A DNA stretch of 64,000 nt, taken from IMG/VR virus record IMGVR_UViG_3300037312_000927; one strand, written 5' to 3'. Positions 59,468 to 60,554 of this stretch are shown here, piece by piece. The position numbers and the translations under genes were made by a program. Position 1 is the first letter of the stretch. Every line of letters begins with the position of its first letter. The notes below the pieces were generated by a model. The model did no database searches. It saw only the letters and a program-made list of their open reading frames with translations, and was not told the origin of the DNA. Origin of the DNA: a virus.

Positions 59468-60127
59468 ATGGCGAAAGTAAAGAAATCGATTACCCGTCTT
59501 CTGGCAGAGCGTAAGGCTTTGGAAGATCGTATCAACAAGGCTACGTCGGTACCTTTCATAGGCATCTCGAAAGGCATTCGTACCCCGACTGTGGTTGGTT
59601 ACACCGGTCAGACCGTCGATCAGGTTTCCGATCTGTTCAAAGGAAACCTGGACAGGGTGCGAGGCCTGATCGGTTACCATAACCGTATCACTGCGGCTCT
59701 GGTGGAATCAAACGCCACTACCAAAGTCAAGATCGGTGAAGAAGAGCTGACTGTCGCTGCGGCTATCGAACGTAAAAAGTCGATCCAGTTCGACAAACGT
59801 CTGCTGGCTACGTTGATCAACCAATCGGCCCAGGTTCAGGGTCAAATCGATGTGGCAAACCGCCAAGTCGACGAAACGATTGAACGTCAGCTGACTTCCC
59901 TGTTTGGCGGCGAGAAAGCTAAGCTGACCGCTGAGCAGCGTAAAGAAACGGAGGATGCGGTTCGTGCTCAACACCAGCAAGCCCCTATCGATCCGAACAA
60001 GATCGCCGATCTGGCCCGTGCTGAAATGGAGCGCATCAGCAAGTTCGAAACCGAAATCGACTTCGTCCTGTCGGAAAGCAACGCCAAGACGGAACTCGAA
60101 CTCGAAGACGAGACCTCTGTAGCCTAA
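59468..60127 (+). CDS. Coiled-coil protein resembling the DIP1984/DUF6847-like family
   Basis: SITRLLAERKALEDRI ... TVAAAIERK ... IDPNK ... EIDFVLSESNAKT; ATG with AGGA SD. Confidence 0.65.
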   Translation: MAKVKKSITRLLAERKALEDRINKATSVPFIGISKGIRTPTVVGYTGQTVDQVSDLFKGNLDRVRGLIGYHNRITAALVESNATTKVKIGEEELTVAAAIERKKSIQFDKRLLATLINQSAQVQGQIDVANRQVDETIERQLTSLFGGEKAKLTAEQRKETEDAVRAQHQQAPIDPNKIADLARAEMERISKFETEIDFVLSESNAKTELELEDETSVA

Positions 60128-60136
60128 CGGCTTCCG

Positions 60137-60518
60137 CCACACCACATTAGTTGAACCATAACCTGACGAACAGGTACTCATCCGGTTCAAGGCCAAGAAC
60201 TGAAAATGGCCAACCTTATTCCTTAACAGGGAATGCCAAAAGATAATGGAGCTCTTAAGTGAGCAATCGACATTTAATCGATCCGTAGATAGTATCTACT
60301 TTAAATTAAAGTCAACGTTCATTACCTCAAAGGTCAAAGGTTAAAGCTCAAACTTCAAGCTATCACAAGTTTAAAGTTAAAAGCTCAGGCGATGTCCTTA
60401 TAACGACTACGCCAAACAACGCTCTTTCAAATCCATGAGTAACGTTTATGAGGGTTCAGGAATAGCCTCTATCTGTACGCATGGCTGTCAACGTTGTGGT
60501 TCAACTAATGTGGTGTGG
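60137..60518 (+). ncRNA. Candidate large structured RNA downstream of coiled-coil gene
   Basis: 23-bp closing helix (60138-60160/60493-60515), several internal hairpins, ~7-nt repeat tract. Confidence 0.75.
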
Positions 60519-60523
60519 CACAG

Positions 60524-60554
60524 ATCCCTAGTTTCGACTGGGGATTTTTTTTTT
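60524..60554 (+). terminator. Rho-independent terminator
   Basis: ATCCCTAGT-TTCG-ACTGGGGAT plus long T run. Confidence 0.85.

Follow-up and report, generated by a model that had tools for sequence, protein, structure and literature searches.

TRAP and HutP are ring proteins that sit on evenly spaced RNA triplets, HutP reading NAG triplets every 7 nucleotides (nt). RNAs of the CsrB/RsmZ type hold many CsrA dimers by means of GGA motifs in hairpin loops, and the csrA and csrB genes are not adjacent. In ToxIN-like type III toxin-antitoxin systems, tandem RNA repeats of ~30-40 nt lie upstream of an endoribonuclease toxin gene. Among phage RNAs, GOLLD and ROOL reach sizes of ~600-800 nt. They are large ornate RNAs of phages and prophages, often found beside tRNA genes, and form RNA-only assemblies (PMC12286853). 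Here we describe a gene-plus-RNA module in a 64,000-nt stretch of an uncultured large phage (IMG/VR record IMGVR_UViG_3300037312_000927; the whole stretch analysed is called the window below). A gene for a 219-residue helical protein is followed, 8 bases past its stop codon, by the start of a 384-nt structured RNA carrying a tract of 7-nt units. The RNA is folded, it belongs to the strand of the gene, and gene and RNA are linked in both directions across distant phages; the module is probably an undescribed protein-RNA particle.

The structured RNA in the window

A sequence-only reading of the window had proposed an RNA of ~380 nt downstream of the gene, closed by a 23-bp helix (60138-60160 with 60493-60515). 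Measured between the outermost bases of this closing helix, P1, the RNA is 384 nt long. P1 is present and longer than proposed: its arms (60136-60162 and 60493-60519) are 27 nt each, 96% complementary and 330 nt apart. The folding energy of a 426-nt stretch here is -145.8 kcal/mol, compared with -93.8 ± 5.3 for dinucleotide shuffles (z = -9.75; 0 of 100 shuffles folded as well). The parts of the module are listed below; L numbers denote homologous loci, and R1 is a covariance model of the tract and 3′ domain.

59393-59401, + strand: promoter-like extended -10 motif TGGTATAAT, read from the sequence; putative promoter
59402-59437, + strand: 5′ leader hairpin (inverted repeat I4, 13-nt arms, 85% complementary)
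59468-60127, + strand: gene of the 219-residue helical protein (open reading frame, ORF; phrog_1491, T5.085 family)
60136-60519, + strand: whole structured RNA, 384 nt (fold, inverted repeat, relatives, model R1)
60136-60162 and extension 60164-60168, + strand: P1 5′ strand (inverted repeat; compensatory changes in L207-L209)
60170-60176, + strand: P2 5′ strand ACAGGUA, pairing with 60470-60476 and crossing helix Pa, hence a pseudoknot
60184-60211, + strand: H-type pseudoknot (stem S2 covaries; order shared with T5, L010, L013 and L006)
60218-60234, 60251-60264, 60266-60282 and 60285-60299, + strand: four hairpins (predicted fold)
60300-60387, + strand: heptamer tract of about 10 nUYAAAG units (Tandem Repeats Finder and family-wide periodicity)
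60388-60413, + strand: variable hairpin GGCG/CGCC (predicted fold; deleted in L004, other hairpins instead in L207-L209)
60429-60487, + strand: conserved 3′ domain (signature in 50 of 51 loci)
60493-60519 and extension 60486-60490, + strand: P1 3′ strand (inverted repeat; compensatory changes)
60522-60554, + strand: intrinsic terminator (11-bp stem at 60522-60547, then a U run; stem covaries in L207-L209)

Beyond a 1-nt bulge, P1 is extended by 5 bp between UGACG (60164-60168) and UGUCA (60486-60490). Stem S1 of the H-type pseudoknot joins GGUUC (60184-60188) to GAACU (60197-60201), stem S2 joins GGCCA (60191-60195) to UGGCC (60207-60211), and an A-rich loop occupies 60202-60206. The 3′ domain contains AAAUCC (60429-60434), helix Pa (60433-60437 with 60480-60484), hairpin Pc (60450-60453 with 60466-60469), the 3′ strand of P2 (60470-60476), and GGCUG (60483-60487). 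Model R1 has a single match in the window, at 60368-60489 (65.2 bits, E = 6.6e-10).

The six hairpins named in the sequence-only reading (GGCCA/UGGCC, AUUCC/GGAAU, GCUC/GAGC, GUAGAU/AUCUAC, GGCG/CGCC, and GAGG/CCUC) all occur in the minimum-energy or centroid fold, and the terminator it placed after the RNA is there too. Its picture of an unstructured tract among hairpins survives in part: the tract of about ten heptamers stands, but its setting is more than loose hairpins, since the core is pseudoknotted both by the H-type pseudoknot and by P2 crossing Pa. For the repeat units of ~7 nt, Tandem Repeats Finder gives a period of 7 at 60327-60352, and the same periodicity extends to homologous tracts (see below).

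The promoter-like motif upstream and the terminator at 60522-60554 bracket both gene and RNA, which therefore look like a single promoter-to-terminator unit. The TTTGGTATAAG motif is found again at 60576 and 60704 (repeat family D3), and L207-L209 keep it 3′ of their terminator. As an extended -10 element, TGGTATAA(T/G) occurs three times in 1.4 kb (59393, 60578, and 60706), each time before a small unit; it is probably the early promoter of the window's phage group. A sigma-70 scan made no call at the 59393-59401 motif and found no -35 element at canonical spacing.

Conservation, covariation, and linkage

A DNA search of a phage collection with the whole locus gave no match to any deposited phage, and relatives were reached solely by protein-level and pattern searches. 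Eighty viral loci found via the protein, together with three annotated phages and the window, yielded 51 non-redundant loci. The sequence-only reading had set beforehand, as a test of its proposal, whether homologous genes have a conserved downstream structure: such a structure, with covariation, is found in 50 of the 51 loci. RNA length across the family is ~260-400 nt. An uninterrupted P1 of 13-28 bp is present in 41 of the 51 loci, spanning 255-403 nt and starting 4-64 nt past the stop codon (P1 was scored sequence by sequence with our own script; 12% of shuffles reach a 13-bp closing helix). The P1 sequences are unrelated between loci though the pairing is kept, and an inner end in which ...CG pairs with UG... 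is common across the family.

Over the family, P1 comprises 698 pairs, of which 576 are Watson-Crick and 122 (~17%) are G-U, and on the opposite strand the helices shorten. Because of these G-U pairs and this shortening, the folded molecule is the transcript of the gene's strand rather than double-stranded DNA. The same data bear on the possibility that the element works as DNA, be it as a miniature transposon, as an origin of replication, or as a site of recombination, which is largely refuted and which we find scarcely credible. Its 27-bp terminal inverted repeats ~330 bp apart do resemble a small transposon. However, the window and whole phage genomes have the element as a single copy, invariably with the same gene upstream in the same orientation; the 122 G-U pairs would be A-C mismatches on the other strand; the internal helices covary; the embedded and flanking tRNAs all share one strand; and no target-site duplication was seen in the flanks. 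A miniature inverted-repeat transposon in particular was rejected on its single copy, the G-U asymmetry, and the flanks.

The 3′ domain (AAAUCC, the 5-bp Pa, a hairpin, and GGCUG running into P1) is present in 50 of the 51 loci. In Pa, 97.8% of cells are paired, and both sides have changed in 61 cells, compared with 15 in shuffles. Its covariation score is 0.745, against 0.183 when shuffled (0 of 500 shuffles score as high), and collapses when the partner strand is slid. An H-type pseudoknot soon after P1, read from the sequences, is common to the family, and the order S1-S2-S1′-A-rich-S2′ was also found by reading in T5, L010, L013, and L006. P2, in which the strand just after P1 pairs with the strand before the 3′ side of Pa, reaches at least 7 bp in 42% of loci, compared with 5.6% of cross-locus pairings, and its last pair is U-A, A-U, or G-C depending on the relative. 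A further contact, in which the strand preceding the pseudoknot meets the 3′-hairpin loop, reaches at least 7 bp in 50% of loci, compared with 16.5% of cross-locus pairings; within the subfamily of the window it has no convincing placement. When broad 5′ and 3′ regions are compared, their longest helix is no better than in shuffles; P2 and the loop contact beat the background after restriction to two positions seen by eye and compared across loci. RNAalifold, run on a full-length MAFFT alignment, retrieved no more than Pa and one hairpin, since that alignment does not keep P1 and the variable region in register. Patterns of the 3′ domain were too unspecific for scanning the viral collection.

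The heptamer spacing is a property of the family as a whole. Across 49 homologous tracts, sequence identity is 0.46 at lag 7, 0.43 at lag 14, and 0.39 at lag 21, against 0.295 in shuffled tracts. The unit has the consensus nUYAAAG, with a U two bases ahead of the A run at 75-87%; each RNA has 4-12 units, and the commonest spacing is 7 nt. Several ideas on what the heptamers might be were set aside: look-alikes of T-loops or anticodon loops, complements of the tRNA-Lys anticodon loop, RNase E sites, slippery heptamers, and a telomerase-like template.

The window's own subfamily comprises four relatives with 54-88% protein identity (L004/L005 and L207-L209). Compensatory changes among them preserve P1 and its extension, pseudoknot stem 2, three hairpins, P2, and the terminator. 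The 5′ strand of S2, for instance, reads GGCCA, GGCCG, GUCCC, or GCCUC, each with a matching partner, and the first, third, and fourth hairpins of 60218-60299 stay paired through double changes in L004 and L207-L209. This stretch (60218-60299) is the variable region. At the nucleotide level, conservation of the RNA exceeds that of the ORF (91% vs 83% identity in one comparison, and 78-81% vs 64-72% in others). Against the relative with 88% protein identity, the heptamer tract has 2 differences in 88 nt (60375 and 60387; ~98% identical), with the ORF at 82-83% nucleotide identity. On this comparative evidence, the RNA is real and under selection.

The linkage between gene and RNA can be followed from either side. 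Starting from the gene, phiPsa374, My1, pVp-1, and T5 each have an unannotated gap of 370-400 nt 3′ of it; the gaps of My1, pVp-1, and T5 fold with a long closing helix, and AAAG-type repeats occur in all four. In whole phage genomes, R1 finds one match beside each copy of the gene, with one in T5; the 349-kb jumbo-phage record IMGVR_UViG_3300024999_000029 has two gene-plus-RNA modules (L023 and L059) ~157 kb apart, whose R1 matches score 90 and 92 bits. From the RNA side, a scan of the viral collection with an RNA-only pattern returned 80 loci, mostly chance matches in AT-rich giant-virus bins, from which R1 sorted 16 true RNAs. The protein gene lies directly upstream in all 14 of these that have enough upstream DNA, and the records of the remaining two also carry one protein copy (16 of 16 linked). 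The claim of the sequence-only reading that the RNA is co-transcribed and functionally coupled with the helical-protein gene is supported by 50 of 51 loci and by the converse linkage. Because the adjacency has held over wide divergence in mosaic phage genomes, gene and RNA appear to work together.

In T5 the gene, T5.085 (NC_005859, 43505-44143), lies in the early region adjoining tRNA genes. The RNA region next to it (NC_005859, 43142-43504, minus strand; RNA of ~355 nt) is unannotated in all T5 records examined. In record AY692264 (L085), an opposite-strand ORF, T5p083, is annotated over the T5.085 gene (1468-2265), a label that looks wrong. About 1.6 kb from the T5 RNA lies rnaX, annotated as a "stable RNA with unknown functions" of 719 nt (NC_005859, 40848-41566; L086, 4063-4100).

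Alternatively, the RNA could act only in cis and not as a stable trans-acting molecule. As a 3′ untranslated region or operon leader, it would stabilize the messenger, provide sites for processing (by RNase III on P1 or by RNase P at the following tRNA), or govern how far transcription reads through into the tRNA array. In agreement with this, the gene's transcript always includes the RNA, P1 forms a long duplex, and a tRNA starts 3-10 nt past P1 in many loci, with a terminator there in others. We nevertheless judge a purely cis role improbable: stabilization or processing would need far less than a body of 260-400 nt that is pseudoknotted, makes long-range contacts, and has both a conserved 3′ domain and a sequence-conserved periodic tract, many P1 helices have just 13-17 bp, and the downstream context varies (terminator, promoter, ORF, or tRNA) while the RNA is constant.

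Partner protein, tRNA context, and a candidate particle

The window protein matches the phrog_1491 profile over nearly its full length (E = 2.1e-52; residues 5-213 on profile positions 4-210 of 211), and a Pfam search gave no family for it; its own record is on a contig of 185 kb. By tblastn, full-length relatives with <40% identity occur in 721 phage records. They include T5 and its relatives, Pectobacterium My1, Vibrio pVp-1, and Pseudomonas Otagovirus phages, as well as phages recorded on Salmonella, Klebsiella, Bacillus, and Lactococcus and a Ralstonia jumbo phage. Conserved residues fall in an N-terminal KxSITRxLxExK, in SNATT and TVAEAIERK, and in a C-terminal SESNAxT. The label "tail fiber protein" attached to phrog_1491 and, in RefSeq, to T5.085 is unsupported: in T5 the gene is in the early tRNA region, and the predicted fold is a helical hairpin dimer.

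The AlphaFold2 model (pLDDT 88.9) consists of long helical hairpins with a small sheet at one end. Modelling supports pairing as a symmetric homodimer: the predicted complex has an ipSAE of 0.68, compared with 0.00 for the best control, a mark reached by 20 of 30 known homodimers and 1 of 23 monomers, and the runs agree in at least 96% of contacts with a partner pLDDT of at least 87. The sole structural match that stands out is 3KDQ, an uncharacterized protein of Corynebacterium diphtheriae (Foldseek probability 0.99, E = 0.05; VIA-align Z 9.7, root-mean-square deviation 7.0 over 150 residues). A profile match to 3KDQ over the SNATT...MTVAEAIE core has E = 0.056, below every curated threshold. 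PF20935 (DUF6847) is weakly matched by 6 of 36 family members (best E = 0.01); neither the window protein (E ≤ 0.1) nor the T5 genome (E ≤ 0.01) gives a match to it. A remote kinship with DUF6847 through 3KDQ is plausible. Among the control genomes, Deinococcus radiodurans has a PF20935 match. Weak matches to Ribosomal_S30AE in 3 of the 36 members were treated as chance.

The module keeps close company with tRNA genes. The window has 16-17 of them on the + strand, and tRNAs lie within 1.5 kb of the module in 34 of the 51 loci, with 88 out of 88 on its strand. In four separate lineages a whole tRNA or tRNA-like gene is built into the RNA ~80-100 nt past the stop codon (L011, 2226-2299; L014, 2212-2286; L057, 2258-2335; L065, 2210-2284; 53-65 bits on RF00005). 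The site is the variable region after the pseudoknot, which corresponds to the window's 60218-60299. If RNase P and RNase Z excised such a tRNA, the RNA would become two pieces joined by P1. The built-in tRNA of L065 has an abnormal anticodon loop, and the "Ser" tRNA of L014 is without a long variable arm.

Two tRNA-like features of the window itself can be added. After the terminator, a second small unit (60576-60682) has the TTTGGTATAAG motif, a 71-nt tRNA-shaped RNA, and its own terminator (60661-60676). The 71-nt RNA matches RF00005 at 46.5 bits, has no ARAGORN call, and by eye has an anticodon arm that forms a closed hairpin of 6 bp and a 4-nt loop; the element is kept in L004, and a different small hairpin element takes its place in L207-L209. 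Within the tRNA array, 47174-47248 is a tRNA with a CUA anticodon (amber suppressor; labelled Pyl by ARAGORN).

We infer that the protein binds the RNA, that the heptamers are the binding sites, and that the complex has a role in infection. The sequence-only reading pictured a ring or filament on the periodic units; the protein may bind in this way, and what the modelling predicts is a symmetric homodimer. The module would be a two-part system of large tRNA-rich phages, expressed as a single transcript from the promoter-like motif to the terminator that encodes a dimeric, mostly helical protein of ~210 residues and then a non-coding RNA of ~260-400 nt. The compact pseudoknotted body of this RNA (P1, the H-type pseudoknot, P2 crossing Pa, and the loop-to-strand contact) may present the single-stranded tract of 4-12 heptamers. 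Several protein dimers could bind the tract via their conserved end, which has the two SNAxT motifs and the AIERK motif, and the resulting ribonucleoprotein (RNP) particle might act early in infection, with a part in the biology of tRNA or translation or in an RNA-level counter-defence. These two roles are suggested because the module sits among tRNA genes and because some members hold a built-in tRNA. That gene and RNA form a particle in which protein dimers occupy the evenly spaced heptamers is a reading we hold tentatively, with slightly less than even confidence. More doubtful is the wider proposal of a new RNP class, with dimers on a heptamer ruler and a tRNA slot in some lineages, that acts on tRNA or translation or shields the phage's RNA pool; its range would take in T5, T5-like phages, Pseudomonas Otagovirus, Bacillus- and Lactococcus-recorded phages, and jumbo phages.

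Four observations weigh against such a particle. We found no recognized RNA-binding domain in the protein (Pfam, including family members), the last residues of the window protein are acidic (ELELEDETSVA), the fold matches other than 3KDQ are generic helical hairpins, and a dimer alone does not account for a 7-nt period.

The tract could instead serve as a decoy or sponge whose target is a host RNA-binding protein, a ribonuclease (for example a defence nuclease specific for tRNA or for A-rich RNA), tRNA anticodon loops, or the ribosome, with the protein serving as a chaperone, stabilizer, or processing factor or acting in the same pathway without stable binding. The position of the module in tRNA arrays and the tRNA hosted in some members agree with this account; so do the A-rich, single-stranded units, and the presence of the family in phages of both Gram-negative and Gram-positive hosts fits a universal target. 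The window also has genes that we take, from labels in the sequence-only reading that were left unchecked, to be of RNA-repair type. Against this account, CsrA is known to bind GGA, Hfq A-R-N triplets, and HutP and TRAP UAG/GAG, and none of these motifs is recognized in the unit consensus. Moreover, the strict adjacency and one-to-one copy number across distant phages are most simply explained by a direct partnership. Taken together, the variants of this host- or phage-target account seem to us unlikely, though a serious alternative to a particle of dimers on heptamers.

After >70 years of work on T5, its early region still has a conserved, unannotated RNA gene of ~355 nt, whose neighbour is mislabelled as a tail fiber protein in hundreds of records, an annotation that the present result corrects. 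In its elaborateness the RNA equals tmRNA or RNase P RNA, and the phages that carry it have hosts in distant phyla. Should it form a particle with the neighbouring protein, that particle would be a phage RNP of a new kind, one whose recognition code is unusual in being periodic. That tRNA arrays so constantly accompany the module may be relevant to the question of why large virulent phages have tRNAs of their own and how these are protected from defences directed at tRNA. Whatever its function, the family now has a covariance model, R1, and a set of defining features.

Comparison with known systems

The sequence-only reading recognized no named family in this RNA, and our searches agree. Over the window RNA, Rfam gives no family at E ≤ 10 except chance-level short matches. 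Only tRNAs pass the gathering score in the window and 15 loci, and at E ≤ 1 in 18 diverse loci there are only tRNAs and sub-threshold neighbours. We found no paper on T5.085, its accession numbers, 3KDQ, DUF6847, RAGATH-27, or the RNA, and the text of a catalogue of ~10,000 candidate viral RNAs does not mention the family (PMC10690425).

It is very improbable that the RNA belongs, in divergent form, to a family already known (tmRNA, Y RNA/YrlA, RNase P RNA, GOLLD/ROOL, or RAGATH-27). A tmRNA-like size and layout and the tRNA or tRNA-like modules inside or beside the RNA would suit this explanation; against it, there is no Rfam or ARAGORN match over the RNA, the period is 7 and not 3, and stops occur in all frames. 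The candidates were also rejected singly. ARAGORN calls no tmRNA, RF00023 is absent over the RNA, and the tract has neither the period nor an open frame for it. RF02553 (Y RNA/YrlA) is likewise absent over the RNA, and the flanking genes are without a Pfam family; weak matches to RF00023 and RF02553 in L041 lie outside the RNA. Those to YrlA, sub-threshold at 35-36 bits, flank the module of L041 (1079-1136 and 2576-2639), one of them ~60 nt past the end of the RNA. GOLLD, ROOL, and other large RNAs of Rfam give no covariance-model match, and RAGATH-27 (RF03100) has no hit at E ≤ 10 in the window or at E ≤ 1 in the 18 loci. A ToxIN-like type III toxin-antitoxin system was rejected as well: the units are of 7 nt, downstream of the gene and inside a folded RNA, and the protein has no such family in Pfam or PHROGs (the PADLOC library was not searched).

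The likenesses to described systems are partial in each case. 3KDQ is the best structural match of the phage protein and shares its conserved-core profile, but, being itself uncharacterized, it explains nothing yet. With GOLLD and ROOL the module shares a large, intricate phage non-coding RNA, of unknown function and adjoining tRNA genes; the present RNA is smaller, is obligately paired with a protein gene, and has the heptamer tract. The resemblance to Y RNA/YrlA and Ro60 (Rsr) lies in a closing helix formed from both ends, a tRNA-like module in some members, a linked partner gene, and occurrence in phages. However, no Ro60 gene is adjacent, and the phage RNA is 3-4 times larger. tmRNA-SmpB is close in size and also has a long end-joining helix, a pseudoknot after the 5′ strand, a central single-stranded tract, and a dedicated small protein partner, whereas the phage RNA is without a tRNA-like acceptor end, CCA, or reading frame, and its protein is unlike SmpB.

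For the tract, the nearest parallels are with proteins that read repeated motifs. TRAP and HutP recognize short single-stranded RNA units at fixed spacing, and HutP is a precedent for a 7-nt period bound by an oligomer. Their targets, however, are leader-RNA attenuators with 3-11 units and the proteins are beta-rich rings, whereas the phage units are inside a large folded RNA and the phage protein is a predicted helical dimer unlike TRAP or HutP. The phage motif nUYAAAG lies in a linear tract and has no fold or sequence in common with the CsrB/RsmZ RNAs. These nonetheless offer a model for stoichiometry, being single RNAs with many short motifs and a dimeric partner.

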